A DNA stretch of 64,000 bases from Planctomycetota bacterium. Lineage in GTDB: Bacteria > Planctomycetota > SZUA-567 > H5-PLA8. Numbering within the stretch: position 1 is the stretch's first letter; the number at the start of each line of letters is the position of its first letter. Shown here in pieces: positions 5,473 to 62,034 of this stretch. A program made the position numbers and the translations under genes. Under the pieces are notes generated by a model. It was given only the letters and a program-made list of their open reading frames with translations, did not search any database and was not told where the DNA came from. The stretch covers positions 66,662 through 130,661 of the forward strand of contig DASXUX010000047.1 in the NCBI GenBank assembly GCA_036504595.1. Direction: 5' to 3'.

Positions 5473-5506
5473 AGCCACAGATAAACACAGATGAACGCGG
5501 ATAGAC
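5473..5506. repeat. CACAGATGAAC-family word repeat
   Basis: agccacagataaacacagatgaacgcggatagac. Related copies at 9405-9425 and 61699-61730. Confidence 0.7.
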
Positions 5507-5526
5507 CCAGGGTGAACTCTAGAAAA

Positions 5527-5571
5527 CCCTCTGCGTCGTTCTCCGCGCCTTTGCGTCTCTGCGGTGAGAAC
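5527..5571. repeat. CTCTGCG-family word repeat abutting the serA-like stop codon
   Basis: ccctctgcgtcgttctccgcgcctttgcgtctctgcggtgagaac. Same family as 9689-9719, 38820-38850 and 53841-53875. Confidence 0.7.
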
Positions 5572-6761
5572 TATCGAGTCGTGAGCTCCGCCTGCAGCAC
5601 GTCCGCATTTTCGCGAATGGTTTTCAATGTCTCGGCGGAGGGCTCCGACGCAAGCGACAGCGTGCAGCACGCGGCTTGAGCGCCCTCGAACACCGTGTTC
5701 TGCATTTCTTCGACGTTGACTTCGTCGCGGCGCAGCCCATCGAGGATGCTGGCCAGCACGCCGACGCGGTCGTAGTGCCGCACGACCAGCGTGTACTTTG
5801 CCGGCGAGCGCGCGCAGATGTTGACCGCGTTCGGTGGAATGCCGGTTTGCTGGAAGACTTTCACGATCCGCACCGCTTCGTCCGCGATGGCTTCGGATGC
5901 CTGATCTGTGGAAGCGCCAATATGTGGCGTGCAGACGACGCTACGGGCAAGCGCCGTATCGGAGAACTCCGCTTCGCTGCCGCCAGGTTCGCCTTCGAAA
6001 ACGTCCAGCCCCGCGCGCAGTTTTCCGGTCGCGAGCGCCTTCTTCAGCGCCGCGGTATCGACGACGTTGCCGCGCGACGTGTTGATCAGGATCGCGCCGG
6101 ACTTCATTGCGGAGAGAAACGCTTCGTTGATCAGTTGCTTGGTTTCCGGCGTCGCGGCGATGTGAATGCTGACCGCGTCCGAGAACTGCGCAACTTCTTC
6201 AGGACTCTTGGCCAAACACACGCCGGCAGCGTAGGCGGCTTCGGCGGTCAGGCTGCGGCTCCAGGCGAGCACTTTCATTTCCAATCCGATGGCGCGCCGT
6301 GCGACACAGCGGCCGATGGTGCCGAAGCCGATCAGGCCGAGCGTGCGGCCCTTCAGGCCACGCGCTTTGCCGAACTCGCCCTTCTTCCATTTCCCATTGC
6401 GAAGTGAATCGGTCGCATCAACGATGCGCCGGTCCGCAGCGATCAGCAGCCCGATAGCCAGTTCGGCGACGGCGTCGGCGTTCTTGCCCGGACAGTTGGC
6501 GACGTAAATGCCGCGCGCGTTCGCCGCCTTCATGTCGATCGTATCGACGCCCGCGCCGGCGCGAATGATCAGCGAGAGGCGCGTCGCGGAATCGATCGTC
6601 TTCGCGATGACTTTCTTCGAACGCACGATCAGCACGTCCGCGTCGCCGATGCTGGCGGGCAGATCCTCGGCCTTCACCCCCGCATCCACGCGCACGTCGC
6701 CTAGAGCCTTCAATGCCGTCACTGTTTCTTCAGCGACTTTGTCCGCGATGAGAATCTTCAT
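5571..6761 (-). CDS. serA: D-3-phosphoglycerate dehydrogenase-like (D-isomer 2-hydroxyacid dehydrogenase plus C-terminal ACT-like domain)
   Basis: NAD-binding GLIGFGTIGRCVA, and typical MKILIADK...VLIVRS N-terminus. About 80 aa of C-terminal extension is consistent with an ACT domain. Confidence 0.8.
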   Translation of the reverse strand: MKILIADKVAEETVTALKALGDVRVDAGVKAEDLPASIGDADVLIVRSKKVIAKTIDSATRLSLIIRAGAGVDTIDMKAANARGIYVANCPGKNADAVAELAIGLLIAADRRIVDATDSLRNGKWKKGEFGKARGLKGRTLGLIGFGTIGRCVARRAIGLEMKVLAWSRSLTAEAAYAAGVCLAKSPEEVAQFSDAVSIHIAATPETKQLINEAFLSAMKSGAILINTSRGNVVDTAALKKALATGKLRAGLDVFEGEPGGSEAEFSDTALARSVVCTPHIGASTDQASEAIADEAVRIVKVFQQTGIPPNAVNICARSPAKYTLVVRHYDRVGVLASILDGLRRDEVNVEEMQNTVFEGAQAACCTLSLASEPSAETLKTIRENADVLQAELTTR

Positions 6762-6775
6762 GTCCCCTCCGAGTT

Positions 6776-6810
6776 AGTGCTGAGTGCGGAGTGCTGAGTG
6801 CTGAGTCGCA
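6776..6810. repeat. heptamer array AGTGCTG/AGTGCGG x5
   Basis: agtgctg agtgcgg agtgctg agtgctg agtcgca, read directly. Confidence 0.8.
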
Positions 6811-6821
6811 AGCGCGGCGAG

Positions 6822-6868
6822 GACTCCAGACTCTAGACTCCAGACTCTAGACTCCAGACTCCAGACTG
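6822..6868. repeat. heptamer array GACTCCA/GACTCTA x6.7
   Basis: gactcca gactcta gactcca gactcta gactcca gactcca gactg. It ends 5 nt from the stop of the oxidoreductase gene. Confidence 0.85.
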
Positions 6869-6873
6869 TCGTT

Positions 6874-8157
6874 TCACCACATTTTCCACGGTGCCCTCAT
6901 CGGATACGTCAGCAGCGACTCGGCCTGCGGGTCGTCGATGAAGTGCTCCGTATCCGGATTCCAGCGCAGCTTCCGGCCGAGTTTCAGCGCGATGCCGCCG
7001 AGCAGACAGGTGCTGCAGGAGCGGTGCGCGATGTCGATGGGCGTGAGCGTTTCGGCGCGCGACTTCACGCACTGGATGAAGTTCGCTTCGTGGTTGGCGC
7101 TTTCGTAAAGGTGAACTTCGCCGGGGCTGAATTTCTCGCGCATCAGCGACGGCGGGTCGCATTCGATGCCGCCGCGCGTAAAGACCGTGCCTTTGGTTCC
7201 GACGAACGTCACGCCGTGGCGATTGCGGCCGGTGTCGGTCATCGTGATCGAGAAGCCGTTGGCGTACTTGAAGTGGAGTTCGTACGTCAGCACCGTATCG
7301 AACAGGCCTTCGGCCGGGTAAACGCCAGTGCCTTCGATTTCGACCGGCCCGCTGCGTTCCATGCCGATGGCCCACTGAGCGATATCGATGTCGTGTACGC
7401 CGTAGCCCGCGACCCAGCCGCTTTTGCTGTAGTCCGAGACGAAGTACCAGCCCGGCAGGCCGCCGGCCGTTCCGACGCGCGCCGGACAGTACGGCGCCCA
7501 CGGCGCGGGGCCGAGCCACAGGTCGTAGTCGAAATCGGGCGGCACGGGCTGGGGCTGATGAAAGCCGGTCGCGATGCCCGGCGGCGACCCGATCTTGATC
7601 TCTTTGATTTCGCCGAGCCGCCCGTTGCGGACGAGTTCGCAGGCGTGGCGCGTGCCGAAACTGGACTTAAGCTGCGTGCCATGCTGGAACACGGTGCCGT
7701 AGCGATGAATCGTTTCGCGCAAGTATTGCCCTTCGGAGATCACGTTGGCCAGCGGCTTCTCGCAATAAACATCTTTGCCGGCTTTGGCCGCTGCGTTGGA
7801 GATCAGCGTGTGCCAGTGATCAGGGGTGCCGACGAGGACCGCGTCCACGTCTTTGCGGTCGAGCAGTTCGCGGAAATCGCGATGCTGGTTTTCGGGTGGG
7901 ACTTTGGCGAGGCCCGCGGCGCGCTGGCGGTGTTGAGTATTCGGGTCGGCGAGGGCGAGGATCTGGGTGTCCCTGACGCCCATGAAGTTCTGCATGCCGT
8001 TGGTGCCTTTTCCGCCGCAGCCGATGATGCCTAGCGTAATGCGATTGCTCGGTGCGACGGTGCCATCAGCGCCAATGGCGGAGCTGGGGATGAAATAGGG
8101 CGCGGCGACGGTGCCGCAGGCCAGGTTGCGCAGGAAGTTGCGCCGACTGGTTCGCAT
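6874..8157 (-). CDS. Gfo/Idh/MocA-family NAD(P)-dependent oxidoreductase with twin-arginine (TAT) signal
   Basis: MRTSRRNFLRNLACGTVAAP TAT motif, and the Rossmann segment ITLGIIGCGGKG. ATG at 8157 follows GGAGGTGAAG. The longer track ORF (to 8268) runs into repeats. Confidence 0.85.
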   Translation of the reverse strand: MRTSRRNFLRNLACGTVAAPYFIPSSAIGADGTVAPSNRITLGIIGCGGKGTNGMQNFMGVRDTQILALADPNTQHRQRAAGLAKVPPENQHRDFRELLDRKDVDAVLVGTPDHWHTLISNAAAKAGKDVYCEKPLANVISEGQYLRETIHRYGTVFQHGTQLKSSFGTRHACELVRNGRLGEIKEIKIGSPPGIATGFHQPQPVPPDFDYDLWLGPAPWAPYCPARVGTAGGLPGWYFVSDYSKSGWVAGYGVHDIDIAQWAIGMERSGPVEIEGTGVYPAEGLFDTVLTYELHFKYANGFSITMTDTGRNRHGVTFVGTKGTVFTRGGIECDPPSLMREKFSPGEVHLYESANHEANFIQCVKSRAETLTPIDIAHRSCSTCLLGGIALKLGRKLRWNPDTEHFIDDPQAESLLTYPMRAPWKMW

Positions 8158-8176
8158 AATCTTCACCTCCCTCCAA

Positions 8177-8279
8177 AATGATGAATGATGAATGCGGAAT
8201 GATGAATATGGCTGCGATGGCGCGAGAGGCAACGCCAAAGATCTAATTTCGCATTCACCATTCCTCATTCAGCATTCGG
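8177..8279. repeat. inverted pair of AATGATG-family heptamer arrays (arms 8177-8211 and 8248-8279), potential long hairpin
   Basis: aatgatg aatgatg aatgcgg aatgatg aatatgg opposite ttcgcattcaccattcctcattcagcattcgg. Confidence 0.8.
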
Positions 8280-8346
8280 CGAGCGACCGCTGCCCAGCCC
8301 GGACAAGCCGGACGTGAGCCGGTGTCCGATCGTCCAAAAGAACAGC

Positions 8347-8445
8347 CTTCAACACAGAGACGCGGAGGACACAGAGTTCACAGAGTGTTTTTTTATTCTG
8401 TTCTTTCCCTGCGCCCTGTGCGTTCTCTGTGCCTCTGTGTTGAAG
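8347..8445. repeat. inverted pair of CACAGAG/CTCTGTG-family arrays (arms 8347-8387 and 8416-8445)
   Basis: cttcaacacagagacgcggaggacacagag opposite ctgtgcgttctctgtgcctctgtgttgaag. The outer 13 nt are perfectly complementary. Confidence 0.8.
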
Positions 8446-8507
8446 TCAGTTCCGTTCGTCCACCTCCAGATCTTGCCCAAAGAGCACAAGGTTCAAGTAC
8501 GAAGGGC

Positions 8508-9515
8508 CTACTGTCGTTTTCCGTTATACACAGCCGCCTGGTCCCCCAGCGCCGCATCGTCCGCCGCTCCTTTATGTATCCACAGACGGTACTTCAGCAC
8601 GAGCGGCTTATCTTTCGTGATGGTGTAGCGGGTGCCCTTGGCGGGAAACGTGGGTTGGAGCCACGGCAGGTCGGGATACTTCACCCACTCGCCAGGATAG
8701 TCCGGGTTGCTGATGTGCTGGAGGATCCCAATGCCCGAGGCTTCGGTCTGGCCGTCGCGGATGCCGGAGTGCAGGCCCCACGTTCGCTGCGGCTGAACAT
8801 TAGCATCATTGAACGTGCGAAGCTCTTGGTGCTTTGACGGCGAGAAGCGCAGGTTCAGGCCGCCGTAAGCGTTCTGGCCGCGGCGAGCGACCTGCACGTC
8901 GGCGTCGATCGCGGTGAAGCGGAATTCGAAGTCGATCAGGCGGCCTTTGTCGTTGGCATGGAAGGCGCGGATCAAAGCGACTTCGGTCACGATGGGCGTC
9001 TTGTCCTCCCAGCGCCATTCGCTTTGGCCTTCGACAAGCGCGAAGTCCGCGGTGGTTTCGGTGCGGACTTTTCCGATCGGCCGCGCGAACACGTTCTGCA
9101 GCGCGTGCAGGTCGCCGCGTTTGCCCTGCCAGTCCACTTCGGGCCAGGCCCAATAGATGCCGCGGTGATGCGGATGGTCGGGAACCCAGTCGTTGGTCAG
9201 GACTTCGCCCGAAAGACCATACAGCGGATGGATGTAGTCGGCTCGCGCAACGGCGTATTTTTTGTTTCCCGCGGCGATTTTCGGCGCGACGTCTTCGGGG
9301 AGTGGAACGATGCCGTGGTTGTAGCGCAGGACCGGCTTGCCGTCGTCGAGGATCGTCCAAGCGTCGGCCGCAGCGTCCTCTTTGATGGTCATTTCCGCAT
9401 AAGCCACAGATGAACACAGGGCAAAACAGAGAAATCCGAAACTCGAAATTCGAAAGAAACAGAAAAACGGCAAACGGAAAAAAGCAACCGGATGAGCGCG
9501 CGCGGACGTTTGCAT
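8508..9515 (-). CDS. DUF6807/PmoA-like family protein
   Basis: DHPHHRGIYWAWPEVDW and YGGLNLRF motifs as I remember them for this family, which commonly neighbours Gfo/Idh/MocA genes. Start is uncertain: ATG 9515, or ATG 9390 (MTIKED) if the repeat-encoded N-terminus is not translated. Confidence 0.7.
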   Translation of the reverse strand: MQTSARAHPVAFFRLPFFCFFRISSFGFLCFALCSSVAYAEMTIKEDAAADAWTILDDGKPVLRYNHGIVPLPEDVAPKIAAGNKKYAVARADYIHPLYGLSGEVLTNDWVPDHPHHRGIYWAWPEVDWQGKRGDLHALQNVFARPIGKVRTETTADFALVEGQSEWRWEDKTPIVTEVALIRAFHANDKGRLIDFEFRFTAIDADVQVARRGQNAYGGLNLRFSPSKHQELRTFNDANVQPQRTWGLHSGIRDGQTEASGIGILQHISNPDYPGEWVKYPDLPWLQPTFPAKGTRYTITKDKPLVLKYRLWIHKGAADDAALGDQAAVYNGKRQ

Positions 9516-9641: not shown

Positions 9642-12600
9642 ATGCTCTTTCCTGCCTCCTGCTTCCAGCCTCCTGCCTCCCGCTTTTTCCTCTGCGTCCT
9701 CTGCGTCCTCTGCGGTGAGCTTCTCTCGGGTGAACAAATCGGTGTGCGGCCGTATGAACTGGACTGGGCCAATCGCACGGAGGACGAACACCCGGCCTTG
9801 GTGAACTTTGAAAACTTGGACGGCTGGAAAGTGGAATGCCGCGAAGCCGAGGCGAAGTTCGAGCGGACGCGCGAGCAGCAGATCTGGGGACAGTATGTGG
9901 GGAAGCTCACGTACCGCGGCACGGGAAACAACCCGCAGGTCAAAATTCTGCCGCCGGCGCCGGTGAAGATTTCGGCGGCGTTCGATGCGGTGACGTGCTG
10001 GATCTACGGCAACAACTGGGGCTGGACGCACGATCCGGAGACGCCGCAGGTCAGCGTTGCGGCGCTGTTCGACGATTCGGAGGGCAAGGAGTTCAGCATC
10101 CCGCTGGCTCACGTGAATTGGACGGAGTGGCATCTGTGCCACCGGCGGTTGACGCCCGAACAGATTGCGCGCGTGAACAAAGGCGCGGCGTTCAAGGGGT
10201 TCACAATCACCGGCGGAAAGAATCAGAAAGACCGCGCGCTGTTCTTCGACAACCTCGCAGTGTTCACCGAAAAGTTCGAACCGTTGTCGTTTCAGCCGCG
10301 GCCGGAGCGCGGGATTGCGATGTTCCCGGGGCAGAGCGCCGGAGCGAACACGGGGCCGGGGAAGCTGCCGTTTCCGACGCGGCCAGAGACGATCCTGCCG
10401 AGCAACTTAATGAAGGACTTCAAGAACGCGATCGAAAAGGACCGCGATGCTTTTCTCTTCAAGTACGACGGCAGCGATGGAAAGCTCGTTTATCGTTTCT
10501 GGCCGCGCAGCGGAATGTTGACGGACATCACGGCGCAATGGGTTGGCCACGCTGAGGCCATTGTTCCCTGCGCTGGCGGCGGGATTCGCTTTCAAACGAA
10601 GGAAGGCGTGGCGGCGCCGCGCGTTTCGGCTCATCTTGGGACGGAACAAAAAGGAGAGACGGTTGAGTCGCGCTGGCAACTGAAGGCCGGCGAGACGGCA
10701 GCGGACGTCACTTACGTCTTTCGCATCTGGGGCAAGTCGCTGGTCGTGGATGTGCTCGCGCCAGGTGGCCTGATTGAGAGCGTGCAGTTCGGCCGCGCGA
10801 CGGGCCTGCAGAATCCGCGCCTGGTGACGGTGCCGTACTATCTTTATGGCGGAACGCGGCCGGCGATTGTTGTCAGTGGGCAACCCGAGATGCCGCTCTT
10901 TCTGGCGGGGCATAGCGATTGGTGTCTTTCCAACGCGTCAACTCTTTGGGCTGCGAACGCGGTTGAAGCCAGCGGCGTAACGTACAACGGCGGGACGCGA
11001 TACATTCCAAAGACCGACGGCAAGCGCAACGATTGTTTTGAGCGCTTCTTCATTACGGTGTCGCCGCGCTTTGAAGAAGTGCTGCCGAACATTCCCAATC
11101 CAGTCTCGCCATGGAAGAAGGTCACCGGCACCAGAGTCTGGCGCGCTCACGGAGCCAGCAATCGCGAGGCGGACGTGAAGCACTGGACCGAGGCGCACCG
11201 CTACGGCATGACGGAACTGGTCATTACCGATCACGAAACGATGTGGCGCGACGGCGGGGAGAGCTTCACGTTCCGCACCAAGGCCGCTCCGAAAAAGGGC
11301 GGCGACGAAGGCGCGAAAGCCTATTCGCGGACGATGCAGGACAAACTGGGCTTCGTTTATGGCCCGTACAACAACTTCACCGATTTTGCGCCGGTCAATG
11401 AATTCTGGAGCACCGATATGGTGTCGCGGAGCTCTGACAATCAACTTCAGCATGCGTGGATGAGATGCTACGCGCCCAAGCCGGCTCGCGCGGTGGAGTA
11501 CTGCGCGAAGCTCTCGCCAATAAATCAAAGCAAGTTCGGCTTCAGCACGGCGTATTGCGATGTGCACACGGCGGTCACGCCGTGGGAGCGCGTCGATTAT
11601 GACGCTCGCGTGTCGGGCGCGGGAACGTTCGCGGCGGTGTTCTATTCGTTCGGCGAAATCATGCTGCTGCAGAAAGAGGCGTGGAAAGGGCCGGTTTATT
11701 CCGAAGGCAACAACCACTTTGAATACTGCGGGCTGACTGACGGCAATTACGCGCAGGACCAGAATTATCGGATCAGCACGCATCCGTGGCTGGTTGATTT
11801 CGATCTGCTGAAGCTGCATGAACTGTGCTGCAACTTCGGCATGGGCAACCCGGACATGTTCTATTGCAGCGATCCGAAAGATCCCGAGATGGATCGCTTT
11901 CTCGCCGCGACTGTCGCCTTCGGCCACCCGGGATTCCTGATGTACGAAGGCGGAATGAAGAACGCACTCAAGAGCTACTACATGCTTCAACAACTGCACA
12001 GCCGTTACGCGCTTTCGAGCGCGAAGGAGATTCGTTACGCGGACGCCAAAGGAAAATTTTTCGAGACGAGCGCCGCCATTGCGAACGGCGTGTTCGAGCG
12101 CTCACAGATCGTGACGCGCTATTCCGACGGAACGATCACGGGCGTGAACGGGCATCCGAGCGAGCGGCTGGTTGTCGAAGCGTTCGGCCGCAAGCTGGAT
12201 CTGCCGCCGAATGGGTATGCGGGGTGGACGGAAGACGGAAAGATCGACGTGTTCAGCGGCGATAGGGACGGACACCGCTGCGATTTCGCCTTTACTCCGG
12301 CGTACATCTACGTCGATGGGCGCGGGGAGTTCACACGTTTTCATCTGAAAGCTGATGCGGACGAGAAAGACTCCGCGCTGGCCGCTTCAAACGGAATCGG
12401 TATCTGCCGGATTTTGCCAGATAACTACGAGATTGTTCCGTTCCAGAATGCCGATTGCGGCTTTGCGATTCCGGTCAAAGATGCTGTGGCCCTCGACAAG
12501 GACGGAAAGGAACTCGGGCCGGCGACGCTGCGGGTTGCGCGCGGCCTGACGTATGTCCTTCCGGTGCAAGGGGCGTTCAGCTACAAGCTCAGCAAGGGCG

Positions 12601-13592: not shown

Positions 13593-13627
13593 GGAACTGC
13601 GCCTTGGGCGCAAACCTAACCCCCCGG

Positions 13628-13652
13628 CCCCCTTCCCTCGGAGGGAAGGGGG
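13628..13652. repeat. near-perfect palindrome CCCCCTTCCCTC-G-GAGGGAAGGGGG
   Basis: Read directly. A 12-bp-stem hairpin, preceded by the small hairpin tgcgcc-ttg-ggcgca. Confidence 0.75.
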
Positions 13653-13726
13653 AGATGGGGATACGATAGCTCTCTTCAATTGCTGCCGATGGACAAAAAG
13701 CAGTGTGTAGAGTACATTATAAAGCG

Positions 13727-14086
13727 ATGAGTATTGCGCGCTCCACTCACCTGAAGGTTGGCGCACCGGCTGTGGTGATGCTCGCGACGATTGTCAACGT
13801 CGCGGTGGGAGATACTGCGTGCGCGGCGGCGCTGTCGGCTCAGCCGTGCCGGCCCGATCTGTCGTGGGCGCTCAAGGGCGGGGCCACGCATGCGGCTCAG
13901 TCCACGCGCGTGCTCATGGCGCGCAAAGCGGCGACGCAGATCCGTTCACTGGATGCGGACGCGGTTCCAGCGGCAGCGTGCTCACCCCAGATTGCCATTC
14001 TTCCCGAAGTGCCCAGCGCGGCAAGCGCCCAGCTTGCGCCCGCGGCCGATCATCGCACCAGCACCTATCAGCACTCAGCCCCGTAA
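13727..14086 (+). CDS. possible small Ala-rich secreted protein (hypothetical)
   Basis: ORF track 13703-14086, with an internal ATG giving MSIARSTHLKVGAPAVVMLATIVNVAVG. GC-rich third positions look coding. No homolog recognised. Confidence 0.3.
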   Translation: MSIARSTHLKVGAPAVVMLATIVNVAVGDTACAAALSAQPCRPDLSWALKGGATHAAQSTRVLMARKAATQIRSLDADAVPAAACSPQIAILPEVPSAASAQLAPAADHRTSTYQHSAP

Positions 14087-14090
14087 CTTC

Positions 14091-14191
14091 AATGATGAAT
14101 GCTGAATGATGAATGCGGAATGGGCGGAAGCGAAACCCGCCGTCCGTGTCATCGTTCATTATTCATCATTCCGAATTCCTCATTCATCATT
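14091..14191. repeat. inverted pair of AATGATG-family heptamer arrays (arms 14091-14123 and 14153-14191) 19 nt upstream of the secA ATG
   Basis: aatgatg aatgctg aatgatg aatgcgg aatgg opposite cgttcattattcatcattccgaattcctcattcatcatt. Confidence 0.8.
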
Positions 14192-14209
14192 GAATAAAGG
14201 GACTGGGCT

Positions 14210-53290: not shown

Positions 53291-53306
53291 TCGGAGACGA
53301 GCGTTC

Positions 53307-53783
53307 ATGCAGCCAGTGATCAAACCTTCCGTCACACTCTTGCGCAAAGAGGGCCGCCTTTTTGTGCGCATGAATGGCAGCGAAGAGAAGCCCGCGAAGG
53401 TTGTCTGGGCGCGGCCGGTCAGCGGCATGGGCGCGGAACTCGCGATTCTCGACGATAAGAAAAAAGAAGTCTGCACGCTGCAAAGCCTCAATGAACTGGA
53501 CCCCGATTCGCGCAAGCTGGCCGAAGAGGAGCTTCTCCGCCGTTACCTGCTGGCGCGCATCACGCGGGTGCTTTCCACCACCGCGTTTGTCGGCACGCGC
53601 TACTGGAACGTGGAGACGGAACTCGGCCCGCGCCAGTTCGTTATCAAAAATGCGCACAAAGACGTCACGTGGTTGAGCGACGACCACGTCGTGCTGCGTT
53701 GCACACTCGGCAACCGGTACGAAATTCCCTCGCTGGCCAAGCTAGATCCCGTTTCACTGGAGCACGTGGAGCGGATAATATAG
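53307..53783 (+). CDS. DUF1854 domain protein (ABC-exporter-associated)
   Basis: MQPVIKPSVTLLRKEGRLFVRMNGSEEKPAKVVWARP... Size and position next to the ABC exporter fit DUF1854 as I remember it. The track ORF 53070-53783 starts inside the ABC gene. Confidence 0.6.
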   Translation: MQPVIKPSVTLLRKEGRLFVRMNGSEEKPAKVVWARPVSGMGAELAILDDKKKEVCTLQSLNELDPDSRKLAEEELLRRYLLARITRVLSTTAFVGTRYWNVETELGPRQFVIKNAHKDVTWLSDDHVVLRCTLGNRYEIPSLAKLDPVSLEHVERII

Positions 53784-53971
53784 TTGGTACTTGGTGAGTG
53801 GTACTTGGTGAGTGGTGAGTGGTAGGATTGCGGATTGAACAGCTCACCGCAGAGGACGCGGAAGACGCAGAGAAGTGACCTAAGAAACTCTGTGACCTTT
53901 GTGTTCTCTGCGCCTCTGTGTTGAAAACTGTTGCCGTTAATTCCGCAATCCGACTTCTGCAATCCGCAATT
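53781..53971. repeat. composite nested inverted repeat built from three word families (GGTGAGT array; GCGGATT/CAATCCGC; CAGAGGA/CTCTGTG)
   Basis: 53781-53826 GGTGAGT array. 53826-53840 ggattgcggattgaac pairs with 53941-53971. 53841-53875 caccgcagaggacgcggaagacgcagagaag pairs with 53888-53925. Confidence 0.8.
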
Positions 53972-53980: not shown

Positions 53981-54955
53981 ATGGCGATCAAGTTCAGAGA
54001 CTACTACGAGATTCTTGGCGTCCCGCGCACGGCGTCGCAGGATGAGATTCGCACGGCGTACCGGAAGCTCGCGCGCAAATATCATCCCGACGTGAACAAG
54101 GCCAAGGACGCCGGCGACCGCTTCAAAGAGCTCAACGAGGCCAACGAGGTTCTCGGCGATCCGCAAAAGCGCAAGAAGTACGACCAGCTCGGCGCCAACT
54201 GGCGCATGGGCGACGAGTTCACTCCGCCGCCGGGCTGGGAACATGTCGGCCGGGGCGGGGCGGGGGCGGTCGGAGGCAGCGCGTTCAGCGATTTCTTCGA
54301 ATCGCTCTTCGGCGGAAAATTCGGGGGCTTTCGGGATTCCCGCGGCTTCGGTGGCTTCAGCGATTTCGGCCAGCACGGAGGTGTCGTCGAAGAAGAGCAG
54401 GGGCAGGGAGCCGACGAGGAAGCTCACATCGAGATTTCGCTCGACGACGCGTTCCATGGTACTGAGCGCACCATCGCGGTGCAGATGCCCGAAGGCGGTC
54501 CGGACGGCCGCGTGCGCACGACGACTCGCCATTTGCGCGTGAAAATCCCCAAAGGCATTAGCACCGGCCAGCGCATTCGCCTCGCCGGCCAGGGCGCGCC
54601 CGGCCCCGGTGGACGCGGCGATCTCTACCTGGTTGTGGAACTCGAACCGCATGCTGATTTCCGTGTCGAAGGCCGTAACTTGCACACGACGCTTTCCGTG
54701 GCGCCGTGGGAAGCCGTGCTCGGCGCGGAGATCCCCCTCAAGACCCTCGCCGGCGGCCTGACGCTGACGATTCCGCCGGGCACCAGCAGCGGCGCGAAGA
54801 TGCGCCTGAAAGGCAAAGGCCTGCCCAACCCCAGCGGTACGCCCGGCGACCTCTACGCCGAAGTCAAGATCGTCACGCCCAAGCGCCTTACTGCCGCCGA
54901 AAAGGAACTGTGGCAGAAGCTGTCGAAGGAGTCGAAGTTCAACCCGCGCTCGTAG
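53981..54955 (+). CDS. cbpA: DnaJ-class co-chaperone lacking the Zn-finger (CbpA type)
   Basis: J domain [33 protein letters not shown], a G/F-rich linker, DnaJ C-terminal domains, and no CxxCxGxG repeats. Confidence 0.85.
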
Positions 54956-55375
54956 GACATTTCGCCGAATTGTCCCGTTCCCCTCAGCTCAGCGCCTGTA
55001 AAAAATTGCACATGTGGTAGTCTGGCCACTCATCCGAATCCTGACCCTAAACCCTGAACCCCGACCCCTGAACCCTGCTGTCCTTCTGTCCAATCCTGCA
55101 CCGTGCGTCGTAGGACATTTCGCCGAATTGTCCCGTTCCCCTCAGCTCAGCGCCTGTAAAAAATTGCACATGTGGTGATGCAACCCCAGAACCCTGACCC
55201 CCGACCCCTGAACCCTGCCGTTCTCCCGTCCAATCCTGCACCGTGCGTCGTAAGCCATTCCGCTGGACTGTCCGTCGTGCCCTCCGCCCAACCCTGTAAG
55301 AAATTGCACATGTGGTGATGCAAAACCCTGAACCCTGAACCCCGACCGCCGAACCCTGCTGTTCCTGCGTCCGGG
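54951..55375. repeat. three tandem copies (periods 158 and 140 bp) of a composite unit, starting at the cbpA stop codon
   Basis: Unit is cgtaGGACAtttcgccgaatTGTCC ... aaattgcacatgtggtgatgca, then a CCTGAAC heptamer array, then ctgtccttctgtccaatcctgcaccgtgcgt. Copies start at 54951, 55109 and 55249. Confidence 0.85.
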
Positions 55376-55669: not shown

Positions 55670-58600
55670 ATGCGGCGCGCAGTTTTCTGCTTCGGAATAC
55701 TGGCCTTGGCCATGTGCTCGTTTTTGCCTGCCGCCACGCTTTATGTCGATGCCAGCGCCCCCGCCGGCGGCAACGGCCAGGCGTGGTCCACCGCCTTCAC
55801 CGATCTGCAAGCCGCCCTCGACATCGCGCAGAGCGGCGACGAAATCCGCGTGGCGCATGGGACGTACAAGCCGACGAAGCAAACAAATCCGCCCAACCCG
55901 CGTTCAGCAATGTTCCAGTTGATCTCCGGCACGACGCTCAAAGGAGGCTACGCAGGAGTCGCTGGACCTGATCCGGATGCAAGGGACTTCACTGCGCACG
56001 AGACGATCCTGAGCGGGGATTTGAATGGGGATGATGACCCAACTAAGGCGCTGAACGACCCAGCGAGGAACAACGAAGAAAATTGTTACCGCATAATCAA
56101 CGGGGAGACGGACATCAGCGGCTTTACAATTGAAGGCGGTAATGCGAACGGTGCCTTGTGCTCTTTCGGAGCAGCGATCGGCGATGGCGGAAGCGGAGGC
56201 ATCATACTCGATTGTACTTTTCGGGGAAACCACGGCGATGGAGATGGGGGTGCAATCTCTGCTACCGGCAATGTCCAGATAATTCGGTGCAAGTTTTTCG
56301 ACAACCACGCCAATTGTGGTGGGGCTATTTACAGCACATCCTCTATCGCTTTGATTGAAAGATGCCTGTTCTCCCAAAATAGTGCTTCGTCCAATGGTGG
56401 AGCCGTGCGATTCTATGCAAACAGCTACTCCGTTACCGTCGAAAATTCTATCTTCTTAGGAAATACATCGACAGATGGCGCGGCCATAGACTTCGGGGTT
56501 GTCGGCATTTCGCCACACGTCGTCAACTGCACGTTCTACGGGAATTCGGCCACCAATGCGGGGGGGGGCGATCTGCAACCAGTCCGCCAGCCCCACCCTC
56601 ACCAACCTCATCTGTTGGGGTGACAGCCCCGGCGAAATCTACAGCGACGCGAACAGCTACCCCTCCATCACCTACTGCTGCATCCAAGGTTGGTCCTCCG
56701 GCGGCACCGGCAACATCTCCTCCGACCCGCTCTTCGTCAACCCACTCGGAGCCGACGGCATCGCCGGCACCGAAGACGACGACCTGCGCCTCAAGCCGCG
56801 CTCGCCCTGCATCGACGCGGGCAGCAACGCCGCCGTGCGCTCGGGCGTCACGACCGATCTGGACGGCAACCCGCGTTTCGTTGACGACCCAGCGGTCGCC
56901 GACACCGGCAGCGGCAGTTCACCCGTCGTGGATATGGGCGCCTACGAGAAACAGAACCGCTCCGCACTTATCTTCTACGTGGACGCCAGCGCGCCACCGC
57001 TTGGGAACGGCCTCTCCTGGGGGACAGCTTTCAACGATCTCCAGGCCGCTCTCGACATGGCCGAACCCGGTGACGAAATCCGCGTCGCGCAAGGGATATA
57101 TAAGCCCTCGAAGCAGACGAATCCGAGCCTTCCCCGCACGGCGACGTTCCAGTTAATCGCGGGGACCACGATGAGAGGCGGGTTCGCGGGAATTGCGAGC
57201 CCCGAACCGGATTCGCGGGACCTGGCGGTGTTCGGCGCGACGCTGAGCGGCGACATCGGCACCACAGGCGATAACTCCGACAACTGCTACCACGTCTTGA
57301 GCGCCAGCGGCGACATGCAGAACGGCGCCGTTGATGGCTTCACGATCACCGCCGGGAACGCCAACGGAGCCAGTCCTTTCAATTCTGGCGGCGGTGCGTT
57401 CTTCAGCCTCGTAAACAATCTCGCCATCACAAACAGCCTCTTCAGTACCAATTGCGCCGACTCTCGCGCTGGCGCAATGTACAACGACCGCTCTTCCCCG
57501 ACGATCGTGCGATGCGCTTTCACCGGCAACACCGCAGTAAACGCAAACAGCTGTGGCGGGATGTTCAACGACAACAACGCCTCGCCTAGCATCACTGACT
57601 GCACTTTCAGCGGGAACACCGGCAATGACGGCGGCGGGATATACAACTTCAACTACTCCTCTCCCGCAATCACCAACTGCATCTTCAGAGGCAACGTCGG
57701 TAACTACGGGGCCGGGATGTTCAACTATCTGTATTCGTCACCGACCGTAGTGAACTGCGTGTTTGATGCGAATACCGCCAACTACTCTGGTGGTGGAATG
57801 TACAACCAGAACGGCTGCTCGCCTGCCATAGCAAATTGCACCTTCGCCGGCAACGATGCGACTGCCCACGATGGCGGTGGGATGTACAACTACGACGCGT
57901 CGCCCGTCGTAACGAACTGTATCTTCTGGGGCGACACTGCAGGGGGTGCTGGCCCGGAAATCTGCGATTCGTCGTCCAGTACGATCGTGGCGTACACCTG
58001 TGTCGCGGGCGGCTACATCGGCACCGGCAACATCTCCTCCGACCCACTCTTCGTCAACCCACTCGGAACGGACGGGATCGCCGGAACTGAGGATGATGAC
58101 TTGCGGCTTCGGGCCGGTTCGCCCTGCATCGACGCCGGCCAAAACGCCGCCGTTCCATCCGGCGTCACGACCGATCTCGCTGGAAACCCCCGTTTCGCAG
58201 AAGACCCCGACGCGGCCAACACCGGTAGCGGCACTGCGCCGATCGTGGACATGGGCGCTTACGAAGGCGCGTTGCGCCCCGTTGCACTTGGCGATTCGTA
58301 TGTTGTCGGCTCCAACGAAATACTCAGCGTTTCGGCGGCGGGCGTCCTGATCAACGACAGTGATCCGCTCGGAACTGTCCTCAGCGCCATTCTGGAAACC
58401 GATGTCGGCCATGGCACGCTGTCGTTGAATAGCGATGGTTCGTTCACCTATACGCCCACGACAGATTACGTCGGCCCGGATTCCTTCAAATACCGCGCGA
58501 AGAACAGTTTAGGAGACGTCTCGTTTATCGCCACCGTTTCCATCGATGTCGCCGGCCTCTTGACGATCACGCAGACTTCGCCGCAGCCGGGCTCCGTCCT

Positions 58601-61600
58601 CGCGGTCGCGCCTTCAGAGATCAAGGTCTGGTGCGACCTCGACGTTGATCCGGCCGCAGTCAATGCAGACACGGTAAAACTCGTGGGCAGCGGACCCGAC
58701 CGGGTCTTCGGTACATCAGATGACATCCAGATCACGCCATCATCGCTCACGGCCACGGGCAATACGCTGACGCTCGACGTGAACGGTCTGCTGGACCCAG
58801 GACAGCGCTACAGAGTAACCGTGAAGAGCGGCACTGGCACCGGGGGCCTGGTTTTCGGAGGCAGCCATCGCGTAATCATCCCGGACCAGACATGCTATCG
58901 GCTCACGGATCTCACGGTGGAGGCGTGGGTCAATCTGGCATCGCTGCCAAGCGATCAGGTGCAGATCTTCATCCGCGATGACGACCGCCCCGGCTATGAA
59001 CCTTTTGATTTGAGACTGGCGTCCGGTGGCATGGCGCAGTTCTGCATTGCAACCGCGACAAACGCGGAGTTTATCGCCAACTCCGGCTGGGCTCTTACGC
59101 CGGGAACTTGGACACACTTGGCCGGCGTCTTCGATTCCTCGACGAAGGTTCTGCGAATGTATGTAGACGGCCAAAGCCGGGGCTCGGCAACCGCCAGCGA
59201 TGTGCCTTTGCAGATCCTCACGGGCGGCTTTCCCAGCCTGGGGATCGGCGACCTTAGTCCGCCTGACTGCGGGCCCCAGTTCTTCAATGGGAGCATTCGC
59301 GACGTTCGAATTTGGGGCGTGGCGCGCACGCAGACTGAAATCCAGGCGAGCATGAACGGCGGCCTCATCGGCAGCGAAACAGGGCTGGTTGGCTACTGGC
59401 CGCTGAATGAAGGCGCCGGTCAGATCGTTCACGATCTCACCACGCACGCGAATAATGGCACGCTCGGTATCGACGCCAATCCTGGCAGCGACGATCCGAG
59501 TTGGCTCGCGGGTGGTGGCGTCCTGAGTTCGCATGGCAAAGTTCTGGATGGCGAATACAGCGGCACCTTCCCATCCGGAAACGGAACCGCTGGCGGAGAT
59601 TTCGTTGTCGAATTCAGCGTTAACGCCCCGCCCGTCGCCGACTCGAAAAGCATCAGTACTCATCGGAACGCCACGGTGGCGAGTACGCTTGCCGTCAGCG
59701 ACGCGGACGGCGACACGTTGAGCTACTCGATCGTCGCACAACCGCAGCACGGCGCCTTAAGCGGGACCGCGCCGAATCTCAACTACGCGCCGAATGCCGG
59801 CTATGTGGGCTCGGATAGCTTCACGTTCAAAGTCAACGATGGGCTTGCGGACAGCAATACAGCGGCAATTTCAATTGATGTGACCAACACGGTCCCTGCT
59901 GCCGCGGCCAAGAACGTCAGTACGCACGGAGGTATGGCAACAGAGATAGTGCTTAGCGCCAGCGATGCCGACAGTGACACACTAAGCTACTCGGTTGTTG
60001 CGCAGCCGCAGCACGGCGCATTAAGTGGCACCGCACCAAATCTCAGCTACACGCCGGCCGCCGGTTATCTGGGGTCGGACAGCTTTACCTTCAAGGCCAA
60101 CGATGGTCTGGTGGACAGTAACACAGCGACAGTCTCCATCGATGTGACCAACAACGCCCCAGTCGCCGCCGACCAGAACGTTAGCACGCACTGGAGTACG
60201 GTGATTGATGTAGTTCTGAGTGGCAGCGACAGTGATGGCAACCCGTTGAGCTACTCTGTCGTCGCGCAACCGCAGCACGGCAGCCTGAGCGGCACTGTGC
60301 CGAACGTCACCTACACTCCTGTCGGAAACTTCAGCGGGACGGATTCCTTCATGTTCACGGTCAACGACGGTACGTGCGACAGCAACACCGCGACCGTGTC
60401 CATCCAGGTCACGAACCGCTCTCCTGCCGCCACTGGCCAGCAGCTATCTGTCCATTCCGGCACCGCCAAGCAGATGACTCTAGCCGGCAGCGACGCCGAC
60501 AACGACGCGCTCAGCTTCGCCGTTGTGACTCAGCCACAGCACGGCACTTTGTCCGGCACTGCGCCGAACCTCACTTACGCACCCACCGGCCATTTCGCCG
60601 GCAGCGACTCCTTCACCTTCAAAGTCAACGACGGCATCACCGACAGCGCCGCCGCCACCGTCTCTATTACTGTCGCCAACTCCGCCCCGACCGTCACAGC
60701 CGGCGCGTCGCTGCTTGCTGTTCCGCCGGGAAGTGCCGCGTCTTTCTTCGCCAGCGGAAACGACCCCGACGGCGACGCCATCACCTACGCTTGGAATTTC
60801 GGCGACGGCGCGACCTCGACCGAACAGAATCCCTCGCACAGCTATCTTTCCGACGGCATCTATTCTCCGACCGTCACGGTCACCGACGGCGCGGGCGCGA
60901 GCGGTTCCAGCAGCGTGACCATCACAGTCAGCAAAGCCCCCACCGCGCGCCTGACGACCAGCGACGTCGTGGCGTTCTCGACGCAGGCGTTCACGTTCGA
61001 TGCCAGCGCGAGCACCGATCCCGAAAACCAGATCGCCTCCTATTCGTGGAATTTCGGCGACGGCACGCCGCTTGGGTCCGGGCAGGTGATCTCCAAAGTT
61101 TACGATGAGCCTGGCACCTACGCCGTGACGCTGACCATTACCGACGCGGCAGGCGTGGCCACGACGATTCAGCGCGACATCGAAGTGCTGCCTGCCTCCG
61201 AAGCCGGCCTCTTTAACGCCTACGTCCGCTACAAAGTCTCGTGGAACCGCAAAACCGAAAACGCCGACACCTTCAGCCTCGACGCGACCGTCAATGTCGG
61301 CGATCTGGTCGTCGGAAAAGGCGCAGCCGTCGCGTTCGAAGTCGCCGGCCAGCGCTTCACCGGCGTCCTCGACAAGAAACTGCGCGACACCAGCCACCGC
61401 GAAGCCAAATGGCAGGTCAAGGCCAGTCTTCGCGGCCAGCCCATCGGCACCGTCTGGATCAAGGCCGACATCAAGAAGGCCAGCCTCGGCGCCGGCTTCA
61501 ATCAGCAGGGAATCCTCGGCAACGGCGACCCGCACGATTCCGTGAGCGCCGACGTTCCGCTCAAACTCGAAATCGCCGGCCGCAGCTTTGAGATCCAGAT

Positions 61601-61661
61601 CCCCTCGGAGTTCAGATTCAACGCCGAAGGCACCAAAGCCAAAGGCACCGGCTCGTTCTAG
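55670..61661 (+). CDS. giant secreted adhesin-like protein (2 x beta-helix modules, Ig-like, LamG, 4 x cadherin/VCBS-like repeats, 2 x PKD), interrupted by a frameshift at a G9 tract
   Basis: Track ORFs 55484-56623 (frame 2) and 56499-61661 (frame 0). Signal peptide MRRAVFCFGILALAMCSFLPAA. Removing one G at 56560-56568 gives ...GNSATNAGGAICNQSASPTLTNLICWGD, colinear with the second module. Confidence 0.8.
55739..58268 (+). repeat. coding tandem duplication of a beta-helix module of about 1234 nt (about 411 aa)
   Basis: LYVDASAPAGGNGQAWSTAFTDLQAALDIAQSGDEIRVAHGTYKP vs FYVDASAPPLGNGLSWGTAFNDLQAALDMAEPGDEIRVAQGIYKP. Also GNISSDPLFVNPLGADGIAGTEDDDLRL vs GNISSDPLFVNPLGTDGIAGTEDDDLRL. Confidence 0.85.
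59622..60680 (+). repeat. four in-frame tandem repeats of about 264 nt (88 aa) encoding Ig/cadherin-like modules
   Basis: Each copy contains SDADGDTLSYS(I/V)VAQPQHG(A/S/T)LSGTAPNL.Y.P...GSDSFTFK.NDG..DSN.A..SI.V.N. Confidence 0.85.
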
Positions 61662-61663
61662 TT

Positions 61664-61730
61664 GCGGATTGTAGATTGTAGATTGCAGATTGAACAGTGG
61701 CCGCAGATGAACGCAGATGGGATAGAGCGA
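61664..61730. repeat. GCGGATT/GTAGATT heptamer array (61664-61695) followed by a CAGATGAAC-family word (61699-61730), directly after the adhesin stop
   Basis: gcggatt gtagatt gtagatt gcagatt gaac; gccgcagatgaacgcagatgggatagag. Confidence 0.8.
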
Positions 61731-61812
61731 TTCACGTTTGTTCGTGCCTGGCTGTCCCGCTCCAACTCGTCGCTCTTGGCTGCGCAAGCGACTTCCAGGC
61801 CGTTGCTCTCAA

Positions 61813-61886
61813 GAGCCAAGAGCTAAGAGCTAAGAGCCAAGAGCTAAGAGCCAAGAGCTAAGAGCTAAGAGCTAAGAGCTAGGAGC
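61813..61886. repeat. 10.6 tandem copies of heptamer GAGCCAA/GAGCTAA
   Basis: Counted copy by copy: gagccaa gagctaa gagctaa gagccaa gagctaa gagccaa gagctaa gagctaa gagctaa gagctag gagc. Confidence 0.9.
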
Positions 61887-61999
61887 ACGTTGAGCGAACG
61901 GGCTACATCCCCGGGTGAAATACTCTAGCAATCCGGCCCGGCCGGGCACTTCCCCCGCCGCGCAGCACGGCACCGATCTCGGCCGTCCACGCCGGTTGT

Positions 62000-62034
62000 C
62001 CCTGCCTCCCGCCTCCCGCCTCCTGCTTCCTGCG
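62000..62034. repeat. CCTGCCT-family heptamer array 10 nt from the 3' end of tRNA-Cys
   Basis: ccctgcc tcccgcc tcccgcc tcctgct tcctgcg. Confidence 0.8.

Follow-up and report, generated by a model that had tools for sequence, protein, structure and literature searches.

Why should the gaps between ordinary bacterial genes be filled, within one genome, with many different short words repeated in tandem? This question is raised by a stretch of 64,000 nucleotides of contig DASXUX010000047.1 from a Planctomycetota bacterium (hereafter the window, meaning the whole stretch analyzed), in which about 13 words, about 11 of them heptamers, occur at a density of some 5 arrays per 10 kb; the 20 gaps that contain arrays lie between 4.3 and 62 kb. 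The word families had been listed in a first-pass annotation made from the letters alone, and all of them were found again, each in its place, by Tandem Repeats Finder (TRF) and by direct reading. With slightly better than even confidence, we regard these arrays as the planctomycete counterpart of the cyanobacterial short tandemly repeated repetitive (STRR) sequences and of the heptanucleotide long simple sequence repeats (SSRs) of Xanthomonas, Nostoc and Geobacter, born by slippage, the paired ones being RNA stem-loops comparable to repetitive extragenic palindromes (REPs).

The specificity of the period was examined with a lag-autocorrelation scan written for this purpose and run at a strict and a relaxed threshold. 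Under strict conditions, 22 period-7 arrays were detected, versus 0-2 at each other period from 4 to 12; under relaxed conditions the numbers were 32 at period 7 versus 1, 4, 3 and 2 at periods 5, 8, 10 and 11, the matches at periods 6, 9 and 12 being mostly weak coding periodicity. When the 34 gaps were shuffled with preservation of dinucleotides, a mean of 0.2 period-7 arrays and a maximum of 1 were obtained. In the TRF output, the unit of dozens of short arrays is 7 nt or a 14/21-nt multiple of it, and the words are built of a conserved 4-5-nt core and 2-3 variable positions. The 7-nt period first proposed is correct for most words, but not for CTCTGCG/CTCTGTG (about 9 nt), CACAGATGAAC (10-11 nt) or GGGGAGA (7-8 nt).

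In order to place the arrays relative to genes, a gene map was built from third-position guanine-plus-cytosine (GC) content, Pfam matches and inspection of start codons and Shine-Dalgarno (SD) sequences. On this map, 12.3% of the window is non-coding and all 32 arrays are non-coding (binomial p = 7.5e-30). The Joint Genome Institute (JGI) calls were used as a second map; their N-termini are longer, and the arrays at 9431-9481 and 9645-9685 fall inside the 5' ends of open reading frames (ORFs), so that 30 of 32 is the safe count. On either map nearly all arrays lie outside ORFs, in line with the earlier reading of them as non-coding. If coding, these two arrays would give hydrophobic segments resembling signal peptides. 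Start-codon calling is misled by such arrays, and several called N-termini pass through them.

Among the gaps of at least 60 nt, 20 of 34 contain an array according to the algorithm and about 22 by eye (~60-65%), which is many gaps but not nearly every one, as the first-pass annotation had it. The arrays make up 17% of the intergenic bases and 80-93% of several gaps of 80-200 nt. For 20 of the 32, the nearest gene boundary is no more than 20 nt away, and several run over a stop codon, which is contained in the array at 50259-50294 and in that at 61658-61699. When all gaps were printed, a recurrent layout was apparent, consisting of a stop codon, one or more arrays, an SD sequence and a start codon.

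The genes of the window are ordinary housekeeping genes (by Pfam: SecA, EF-G, AroA, NadE, BipA, DnaJ, CorA and an ABC exporter). Compared with its counterparts in metagenome-assembled genomes (MAGs) of uncultured Planctomycetota, BipA shows 81-86% identity, versus 52-59% with all others. This agrees with the earlier idea of a genome of the Planctomycetes-Verrucomicrobia-Chlamydiae type, and the host is an uncultured Planctomycetota lineage. The window is part of a JGI metagenome contig of 470,911 bp (3300035523, Ga0376481_000030). It is unlikely that the arrays were produced by assembly, since an independent Logan assembly (L090, from run SRR11794808) reproduces their sequence exactly, being 100% identical to the window over 8135 bp. 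The match covers the AGTGCTG array and the hairpin at 5468-5572 and reaches 30 nt into the GACTCCA array, within which the L090 contig breaks off; heptamer arrays thus interrupt short-read assemblies.

To what class of repeat do the arrays belong? Knowledge of bacterial heptamer repeats goes back to 1990, and the STRR1-3 repeats of Calothrix and Anabaena were reportedly described by Mazel and colleagues in that year. As in STRRs and long SSRs, the units are tandem and 7 nt long, a few to about 10 copies are present, several unrelated words coexist in one genome, the arrays are dispersed and almost entirely intergenic, period 7 stands above neighbouring periods, and the function is unexplained. 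Unlike STRRs, they occur in a member of the Planctomycetota and not in a heterocystous cyanobacterium, and their words differ from STRR1-3; unlike both STRRs and long SSRs, they are much denser (~5 per 10 kb, in ~60% of the gaps) and about half of them are paired into long hairpins. Membership in the STRR/long-SSR class, but not in STRR proper, is well supported, and the STRR resemblance noted earlier is sound. As far as the summaries of the long-SSR survey of Mrazek et al. (2007) in PMC4679880 and PMC4692102 extend, most genomes have heptamers as their most frequent long SSR, and the first of these summaries attributes them to polymerase slippage.

The occurrence of the words elsewhere was followed by scanning metagenome contigs for (TGGAGTC)x3. 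At least 120 stretches were found, of which 80 were analyzed (531 kb, GC 0.41-0.67). These 80 loci contain 287 period-7 arrays (5.4 per 10 kb), compared with 15, 41, 24 and 26 at periods 5, 8, 10 and 11, and the arrays are made of 131 distinct words, among which window words recur (AATGATG 13 times, and AAACCCT, AATCCGC and ACTCAGC). A Chloroflexota locus (L169; NusA 83% identical to Dehalococcoidia) contains 22 arrays in 11 kb, and an Acidobacteriota locus (L130; Ffh 90-96% identical to Pyrinomonadaceae) contains 12; TGGAGTC and AATGATG are common to Planctomycetota, Acidobacteriota and Chloroflexota. At loci anchored on BipA, period 7 was the top non-triplet period everywhere, with array densities per 10 kb of 5.0 in the window, 1.8 in close MAGs and 0.66 elsewhere. 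Heptamer arrays are thus widespread, and the window genome stands at the extreme. As a separate observation, L169/L120 (contig BBPD01000027.1) is denser than the window, with 16 words and many G-first hairpins of very short loop around the RNase III and NusA genes.

The orientation of the arrays follows a simple rule. In the window, 26 of 33 arrays (Fisher p = 0.0016) conform to it: the plus strand is G-rich in arrays close to a gap's left edge and C-rich in those close to its right edge. In a held-out 9-kb left flank, 5 of the 6-7 new arrays obey the same rule. By this rule, whatever the orientation of the genes and in each of the four gap types, the 5'-to-3' course of the G-rich strand leads away from the nearest gene; therefore, paired arrays have the G-rich arm 5' on both strands. 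This was the case for 41 of 44 pairs when all were pooled, for 35 of 36 true heptamer hairpins and for 6 of 6 heptamer hairpins in convergent gaps. In the 80 metagenome loci, 22 of the 23 same-word inverted pairs are G-first, none is C-first and 1 is neutral, in 11 codirectional, 4 convergent, 3 divergent and 4 unknown contexts. A "keto-rich" or "purine-rich arm first" rule is weaker (37/44 versus 41/44). Transcription direction was also rejected as the determinant, since a palindromic hairpin is G-first on either strand and, for unpaired arrays, the rule says no more than that the G-rich strand leaves the nearest gene. Protection of arms by Chi-like sites was discarded, the variety of words being far too great for it.

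The rule itself is already published. The GGGNATC repeats of Xanthomonas and Nostoc/Anabaena lie 0-50 bp from ORF ends, at times over the stop codon, and their G-rich strand is coding just downstream of stops and non-coding just upstream of starts; inverted-repeat pairs occur, and no tie to mobile elements or gene classes was seen (Rehm et al. 2015, PMC4692102). The window arrays resemble them in their position at ORF ends and in their polarity. However, a single word per genome, able to form G-quadruplexes (G4), is involved in those bacteria, versus about 13 words in the window, where only GGGTTCA, GGGGAGA and GGGTGAC contain a G-triplet. TGGAGTC, AATGATG, TGGTGAG, GCGGATT, GAGCCAA, GCTTGAG and GTCTGGT do not. 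Because most window words lack G-triplets, the shared rule of position and polarity is not a G4 property; what is new is that it holds for words unable to form G4, which removes the sole published mechanistic idea for the polarity.

The same facts bear on the proposal that the arrays are protein-binding DNA or RNA sites (for example for cold-shock-domain proteins, one per heptamer) or G4 regulators, which we consider the least probable of the explanations weighed here. The conserved core of each word would suit a binder, CspB binds heptamer repeats with one protein per unit (PMC4679880), and the three G-triplet words could form G4 as GGGNATC does. However, the words are too many and too unrelated for one specific binder, most of them cannot supply G-triplets, and the flanking genes are unrelated housekeeping genes. 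For comparison, phase-variation SSRs lie inside the ORF or promoter spacer of surface or virulence genes and vary in copy number between strains; the genes next to the window arrays are housekeeping ones (SecA, EF-G, NadE, DnaJ, BipA), and the sole second assembly is identical.

Two further systems are close to the window arrays. TAACTGA direct repeats of marine Beggiatoaceae, Cyanobacteria and Bacteroidetes are intergenic and near start codons (MacGregor 2015, PMC4679880); as with the window words, they are common to distant phyla, in their case without an evident transfer mechanism (PMC4679880). Unlike the window, Maribeggiatoa has one dominant word and one inverted set in 170. The "global regulator sites" of Geobacter metallireducens consist of 3-5 tandem units of 7-9 nt, with opposite-strand pairs at variable distance and tens of copies (Aklujkar et al. 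2009, PMC2700814). Their consensus, TCTCCGTS[Y], is reminiscent of the window TCCTCTGCG family, but they were read as DNA sites for a regulator, fall into few families and were not described as filling stop-to-SD gaps. No description of heptamer arrays in Planctomycetota was found in the papers searched, the nearest hint being a reported excess of G-patterns in Isosphaera pallida. Nevertheless, the first-pass view that the arrays had not been characterized is too strong, because position, stop overlap, strand rule and inverted pairing are published for Xanthomonas, Nostoc and Geobacter. The repeat class, its position at ORF ends and the strand rule were known already. New here are the many words at high density, the copies related by descent, the insertion between the ABC and DUF1854 genes, the sense bias and the G-first rule in non-G4 words.

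What could impose such a polarity? One possibility, which we hold to be improbable, is a polar DNA process in which G-rich repeats are synthesized 5' to 3' outward from both sides of an intergenic break or nick and then joined, with the geometry of fused telomeres. The outward course of the G-rich strand in the window and in the held-out flank would fit such a process, as would the G-first order of heptamer hairpins whatever the gene orientation. Unit order is independent in the two arms of heptamer hairpins, loops of hairpins of the same word can be unrelated, and gene-proximal flanks are slightly more consensus-like than loop-proximal ones (a weak gradient, p = 0.025). The G-first rule together with the independent unit order is what this process explains best. 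On the other side, no candidate enzyme was seen in the window, and we know of no enzyme that would synthesize heptamers in a polar way. In addition, identical arrays at two loci need copying and not de novo synthesis.

Furthermore, selection could give the same polarity, stop-poor C-rich strands after ORFs and start/SD-rich G-rich strands before ORFs being disfavoured. As they stand, arrays located after ORFs place stops in 1.59 of the 3 frames, versus 0.73 if inverted, and arrays before ORFs contain 1.1 SD-like 4-mers per 100 nt, versus 3.2 if inverted; selection for frame closure and for SD avoidance is thus a candidate for the polarity. Enrichment of SD-like cores in the G-rich words over what composition predicts was examined by permutation of 166 words and rejected (4-mers, 47 versus 47.0, p = 0.53; 5-mers, 17 versus 12.3, p = 0.09), and stop triplets on the G-rich strand are marginally enriched (77 versus 67.8, p = 0.045). 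It seems equally improbable that the arrays are the footprint of an active strand-polar process common to distant phyla with a shared word vocabulary.

The inverted-repeat search revealed arms of 22-44 nt with 75-94% complementarity, paired at 8177/8246, 8340/8409, 14088/14161, 24598/24668, 32615/32667, 36528/36568, 38776/38829 and 53210/53255, with a nested pair at 53822/53933 around 53843/53888. At least 10 inverted pairs form imperfect hairpins of 30-45 bp, and their RNA folds reach -40 to -64 kcal/mol (z = -2.8 to -7.4 versus shuffles), so that the proposal of inverted arms folding as hairpins, many of them at gene ends, was confirmed. In the heptamer pairs (AATGATG, GACTCCA, CCTGAAC, GAGCCAA), arm complementarity is still 0.66-0.79 at offsets of ±7 and ±14, versus 0.76-0.82 in the best register. 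These stems are therefore slippery: no register is fixed and variable positions are not compensated unit by unit, as expected if the arms evolve as arrays and not as a fixed palindrome.

The CTCTGCG/CTCTGTG elements behave differently and constitute a separate period-9 hairpin family, apart from the heptamer arrays. Their TRF period is 9 (TCCTCTGCG, 100% at 9688-9714), their hairpins have one good register (0.72-0.74, versus 0.25-0.5 when shifted), the copies end in common termini, CTCTGCGGTGAGA or CTCTGTGTTGAAG, and the purine-rich arm comes first. Similar elements were found in relatives, at L083 10730-10765 and L002 17995-18126.

The strands of the hairpins were then compared. In 8 of 8 independent codirectional hairpins of the window, the sense fold contains more G.U pairs than the antisense fold and surpasses it in stability by 1.5 to 13 kcal/mol; it is also better in 4 of 4 further ones (one from the held-out flank, L089, two from L004 and one from L002, the last two loci being from relatives). 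Pooled, this gives 12 of 12 (sign test, p = 2.4e-4). Such an asymmetry is a classical sign of a structure kept in the transcript and is here suggestive rather than decisive, because the same sign would result if transcription biased the non-template strand from C to T.

How do these hairpins compare with known extragenic stem-loops? REPs, bacterial interspersed mosaic elements (BIMEs) and GTAG-REPs are transcribed, lie mostly downstream of codirectional or convergent ORFs and often form opposed pairs (Di Nocera et al. 2013, PMC3733652); G.T pairing suggests that REPs act as RNA, and mRNA stabilization or termination has been proposed (PMC3733652). REPs are fixed palindromes of 20-40 bp with a GTAG/CGTC tag and stems of 6-13 bp, mobilized by REP-associated tyrosine transposases (RAYTs). 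The window arrays are not of this kind: the heptamer stems have no fixed palindrome and no common tag, their repetitive arms measure 30-45 nt and their words are many. The resemblance to REP/BIME proposed at first is consequently functional, true GTAG-REPs being a separate element in the window.

These GTAG-REPs, of the form GTAGCGCAATCC-loop-GGATTGCG, were found at 19537-19562 (plus strand), 19580-19605 (minus), 22817-22842 (minus) and 33473-33498 (plus), the first two lying head to head; one REP has a GTAG tag that includes the TAG stop of AroA (22839-22841). The family type has already been reported from Planctomycetes (PMC3733652). Because the REP stem is identical to the heptamer word GGATTGC (arrays at 53822 and 61662) and the 53822 array opens with GTAG, at least one heptamer word may have been seeded from a pre-existing stem. 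A small family of C-first palindromes, CCCCCGGCCCCCTTCCCTC-G-GAGGGAAGGGGGAG and CCCCTCTCCCTCGCGGGGGAGAGGGG, was also observed at 13610-13670 and at L089 20343-20385; its polarity is opposite to that of the heptamer hairpins.

Correia- and ERIC-type MITEs (miniature transposable elements with inverted repeats; ERIC, enterobacterial repetitive intergenic consensus) form long hairpins that are co-transcribed with genes and cleaved by RNase III. Like them, the window hairpins of about 100 nt stand at gene ends and inside operons and exist in copies related by descent; by analogy, their long double-stranded stems would be substrates of RNase III. No conserved internal sequence, distinct terminal inverted repeats or target-site duplication were seen in them; loops unrelated between copies (AATGATG) and short sequences common to copies (GAGTCTG, GAGCCAA) were both observed. 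An Rfam scan of the window reached the gathering score for tRNA-Cys alone and for none of the hairpins; at relaxed thresholds, sub-threshold matches to microRNA-precursor shapes corresponded to generic long hairpins.

The history of the arrays can be partly read from their copies. Above the basic unit, TRF gave periods of 14 and 21 nt with 90-100% identity, hence two- or three-unit blocks are duplicated; in all, the arrays change by doubling of 7-, 14- and 21-nt blocks. Between loci, 36524-36556 matches 53792-53824 at 33/33 nt, the order of variant units included, and both follow immediately on a stop codon. Identity is 94% between 6835-6868 and 24668-24701 and, flanks included, 88% between 9682-9724 and 38813-38855. 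The GAGTCTG hairpins at window 24598 and at L089 12903-13006 share the loop start ACAGCAACG, and the GAGCCAA copies have TCGCTCTTGGCTG in common. Family copies at distinct loci are thus related by descent. Since block duplications and related copies at different loci coexist, local slippage and some dispersal or gene conversion are both at work.

Could the hairpins instead be mobile elements of the MITE/REP type, spread by a structure-specific transposase acting on single strands (a RAYT or a member of the IS200/IS605 family) or by a similar enzyme, and modified by slippage only afterwards? The identical or nearly identical copies at distant loci, the two hairpins with common loop and terminal sequences, the conserved termini of the period-9 family, the link of GGATTGC to the GTAG-REPs, the insertion into a conserved gene junction described below and the presence of the same words in three phyla would all fit. 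The vocabulary does not: more than 13 unrelated words would have to move in one genome, and 131 in the 80 loci, and the loops of two AATGATG hairpins are unrelated. Moreover, no transposase gene, RAYT included, was present in the 64-kb window or in 17 kb of flanks, and neither target-site duplications nor terminal inverted repeats distinct from the arrays were seen at the hairpins. We consider this origin unlikely.

The array comparison at orthologous sites rests on the ABC/DUF1854 junction. The closest DUF1854 homologue among 5.8 billion proteins is 60% identical; no synteny with the window proteins was found around BipA in the ten closest MAGs, and a protein-based metagenome scan for orthologous loci gave no match. 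The ABC and DUF1854 genes are 1 nt apart or overlap by 4 nt in four relatives (L083, L085, L086 and L087), but are separated by a 112-nt gap in the window. At least one hairpin was thus inserted between genes that abut in relatives.

The first-pass annotation had counted only four canonical terminators and suggested that the arrays substitute for them. A lenient terminator consensus gave no excess over shuffles in 2 of 3 segments of 20 kb, and the strongest intergenic sites alone were used. At least six strong canonical terminators were found (1735-1748, 17682-17715, 24236-24275, 26924-26949, 28012-28032 and 48019-48045), which corrects the first count. Replacement of intrinsic terminators in a genome poor in them would agree with the presence of a strong canonical terminator at only ~6 of ~32 gene 3' ends and with the convergent gaps 32606-32702 and 36524-36606, which hold a heptamer hairpin alone. 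However, the SecA 3' end has a GCTTGAG array and then a full terminator, and a 70-aa gene has a terminator followed by a CCCTGAA array. The heptamer hairpins have no U-tract and none is among the strong terminator-like sites; one lies inside the ABC/DUF1854 junction, and others stand in 5' leaders directly against SD sequences. The terminator at 24236-24275, whose stem is made of GAGTCTG units, shows what a terminator version looks like: short and with a T-run. Because terminators coexist with arrays and hairpins occupy the operon junction and 5' leaders, the arrays have been added to minimal gaps, in part within operons and in part in leaders, and do not generally replace terminators. As a general explanation, replacement is very improbable; a terminator role is possible at the two convergent gaps alone.

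For the slippage-born counterpart of STRRs and long SSRs, the following course is proposed. The arrays would arise and grow by slipped-strand or template-switch replication errors, under a general bacterial preference for 7 nt, and would be purged from ORFs by purifying selection on frame-breaking units, 7 not being a multiple of 3. They would be co-transcribed with the flanking genes. When paired, they might act post-transcriptionally, like REP/BIME or Correia-type stem-loops, as barriers to 3'-exonucleases, as sites for double-strand RNases or as insulators between cistrons, and would not be the main intrinsic terminators.

Several points weigh against this proposal. About half of the arrays are unpaired, hence without a hairpin; the sole second assembly of the strain, L090, is identical; slippage alone explains neither the G-first polarity nor the recurrence of words in three phyla. 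We infer the RNA role, and transcription through the arrays, from position and from the sense/antisense asymmetry, and the G.U excess of the sense strand could be explained by the C-to-T bias mentioned above.

Some of these points favour a neutral or selfish by-product, that is slippage-prone junk accumulating where frame-independent sequence is tolerated, with hairpins as accidental template-switch results devoid of RNA function. The unpaired half, the deamination that accompanies transcription, the stems without fixed register or compensation, the unequal density among related genomes and words with no SD-like enrichment and a marginal one in stop triplets are all compatible with it. On the contrary, a sense fold that is better in every hairpin compared, a polarity with a single exception among heptamer hairpins, the tight placement at stop codons and SD sites, and the same words across phyla are hard to obtain by unconstrained drift. 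A by-product without function is a credible but less probable explanation.

The individual elements of the window are described below from left to right, with the strand where one was assigned. The diverged CTCTGCG/CACAGAT-family hairpin at 5468-5572 (minus) ends in CTCTGCGGTGAGAA at the stop of the 2-hydroxyacid dehydrogenase gene (sense fold -39.4, antisense -29.6). Directly upstream, in the minus sense, of the SD and start of this gene lies the AGTGCTG array given by TRF (~5 units, 6774-6812), and the GACTCCA array of 6.6 units at 6822-6874, with alternating CCA/CTA and a period-14 substructure, abuts the GFO oxidoreductase stop. The AATGATG hairpin at 8172-8284 (minus; arms 8177-8207 and 8246-8280; z = -2.8) is SD-adjacent, 19 nt before the GFO start. 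The period-9 CRCAGAG/CTCTGYG hairpin at 8338-8455 (minus), of fixed register with arms of ~45 nt, lies downstream of the DUF6807 stop and folds at -54.7 kcal/mol (z = -6.2).

At 9645-9725 (plus), a CCTGCCT array is followed by TCCTCTGCG x3 (100%) and a GGTGAG terminus, in the 5' leader or the signal-peptide-like N-terminus of a 1306-aa protein. As called (9642-9725), this protein begins MLFPASCFQPPASRFFLCVLCVLCG, in which LCV is encoded by TCCTCTGCG x3; similarly, the T-rich stretch at 9431-9515, with lag-7 periodicity, encodes the DUF6807 signal peptide. C/T-rich arms may have been recruited as hydrophobic signal sequences, or the starts may be miscalled. A second AATGATG hairpin (14086-14196, plus, z = -5.9) ends 16 nt before the SecA start, and the GCTTGAG array at 17628-17661 (plus) begins 1 nt past the SecA stop, ahead of the canonical terminator there. 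An unpaired left arm of the period-9 family (CTTCAACACAGAGGCGCAGAGGACACGGAGG, 17738-17780) overlaps the stop of a WD-repeat gene.

The GGGTTCR array at 19371-19407 lies in a divergent gap, beside a GCACATGTGCAC...TTGGACAGAAGAA motif. A 28-nt motif, TGCACWTGTGCAC-TYTTGGACAGAAGAA, was observed at 19342-19369, 19426-19453 and 45608-45635 with 79-93% identity, with partial copies (TTGCACATGTGGT) at ~55006, ~55164 and ~55304. It is located upstream of two genes, and in 19342-19460 it directly adjoins GGGTTCA arrays. It may function as an operator or promoter, or may belong to a larger repeat unit. The GGGGAGA array (21589-21628, plus, period 7-8) begins at the stop of a 169-aa gene. The GAGTCTG/GACTCCA hairpin at 24598-24707 (minus), which has the loop start ACAGCAACG, abuts the EF-G stop and folds at -61.8 kcal/mol (z = -6.5). 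The CCCTGAA array at 27959-27991, between the terminator 28012-28032 and the start of a xylose-isomerase-like gene, is an exception to the polarity rule. Two different words share one gap (30339-30428, plus), a GTCTGGT array following the DUF4254 stop and an AATGACC array preceding the SD of the M16 peptidase gene.

The GGGTTCA/CCTGAAC hairpin at 32611-32700 extends from stop to stop in a convergent gap, of which it fills 93% (-54 kcal/mol, z = -5.4). A promoter of the sigma-70 type matching at 12/12 positions (TTGACA, 18 nt, TG-TATAAT) was noticed at 33597-33626, upstream of NadE in a divergent gap free of arrays. At the NadE stop begins the GTGAGTG/GTGGCTG array (35625-35671, plus, period 14 at 100%). 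Three arrays open with a common TAG-TT stop context, TAGTTAGTGAG (35621-35627), TAGTTGGTACT (53781-53787) and TAGTTGCGGAT (61659-61665), which may be an insertion-site preference or chance. The TGGTGAG/TCACCAC hairpin at 36524-36598 fills its convergent gap (z = -5.4), its first 33 nt being those of 53792-53824. The period-9 hairpin at 38774-38853 (minus, z = -7.4) follows the stop of a 1302-aa gene and folds at -44.3 kcal/mol in sense versus -31.4 in antisense, with 4 versus 0 G.U pairs. Its 3' arm overlaps the likely GTG start (38784/38781) of a 750-aa protein with the lipoprotein signal MVRSFGLLILTAC, whose N-terminus as called passes through the array (38781-38859).

The GGGTGAC array at 50259-50294 (plus) includes the TGA stop of a zinc-ribbon gene. 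The GCTCTTG/GAGCCAA hairpin at 53207-53294 (plus, z = -4.7) occupies 79% of the 112-nt ABC/DUF1854 gap. It is followed by a composite element at 53785-53970 (plus; -64.2 kcal/mol, z = -7.0), which starts with a TGGTGAG/TGGTACT array at the DUF1854 stop and ends at the DnaJ SD; its outer GCGGATT/AATCCGC arms enclose an inner period-9 hairpin, 53843-53925. The DnaJ stop is immediately followed by three copies, in tandem, of a 140-158-nt unit (54950-55372, plus), with one CCCTGAA array per copy (55040-55077, 55183-55217 and 55318-55358), and the first two units have 69 nt in common at 100% identity. The GCGGATT/GTAGATT array at 61658-61699 (plus) overlaps the TAG stop of a 1701-aa protein with immunoglobulin (Ig)-like domains and is followed by GAACAG and CGCAGATGAA x2. 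The longest array of the window, AAGAGCY with 10.9 units (61810-61892), has a TRF score of 124, and the CCTGCCT/CCCGCCT array at 61996-62038 ends 6 nt from the tRNA-Cys 3' end.

To the right of tRNA-Cys, no period-7 arrays were found in 62120-64000 or in L088 17446-25106 (7.7 kb past the right edge), where gaps are few; the 9-kb left flank, unlike the right one, holds seven arrays. This contrast beside a tRNA gene could mark more recently acquired DNA. In-frame coding repeats also occur, in the 1701-aa Ig/cadherin-domain protein (264 nt x3, 59687-60478; 246 nt x2, 56702-56947 and 58019-58264) and in a DUF6600 protein (92 nt x2, 2111-2202 and 2285-2376). These domain repeats are of an ordinary kind and have no relation to the heptamers.

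The preference for 7 nt and the function of bacterial heptamer repeats remain unexplained, and the window offers an unusually dense, many-word example in a phylum with no earlier description. If a strand-polar process drawing on a word vocabulary common to distant phyla were at work, it would imply a dedicated enzyme system, possibly transferred horizontally. Whatever their cause, three rules (the G-rich arm comes first, sense folds are more stable, and words are shared by three phyla) make it testable why the repeats are heptamers and why they stand where they do.

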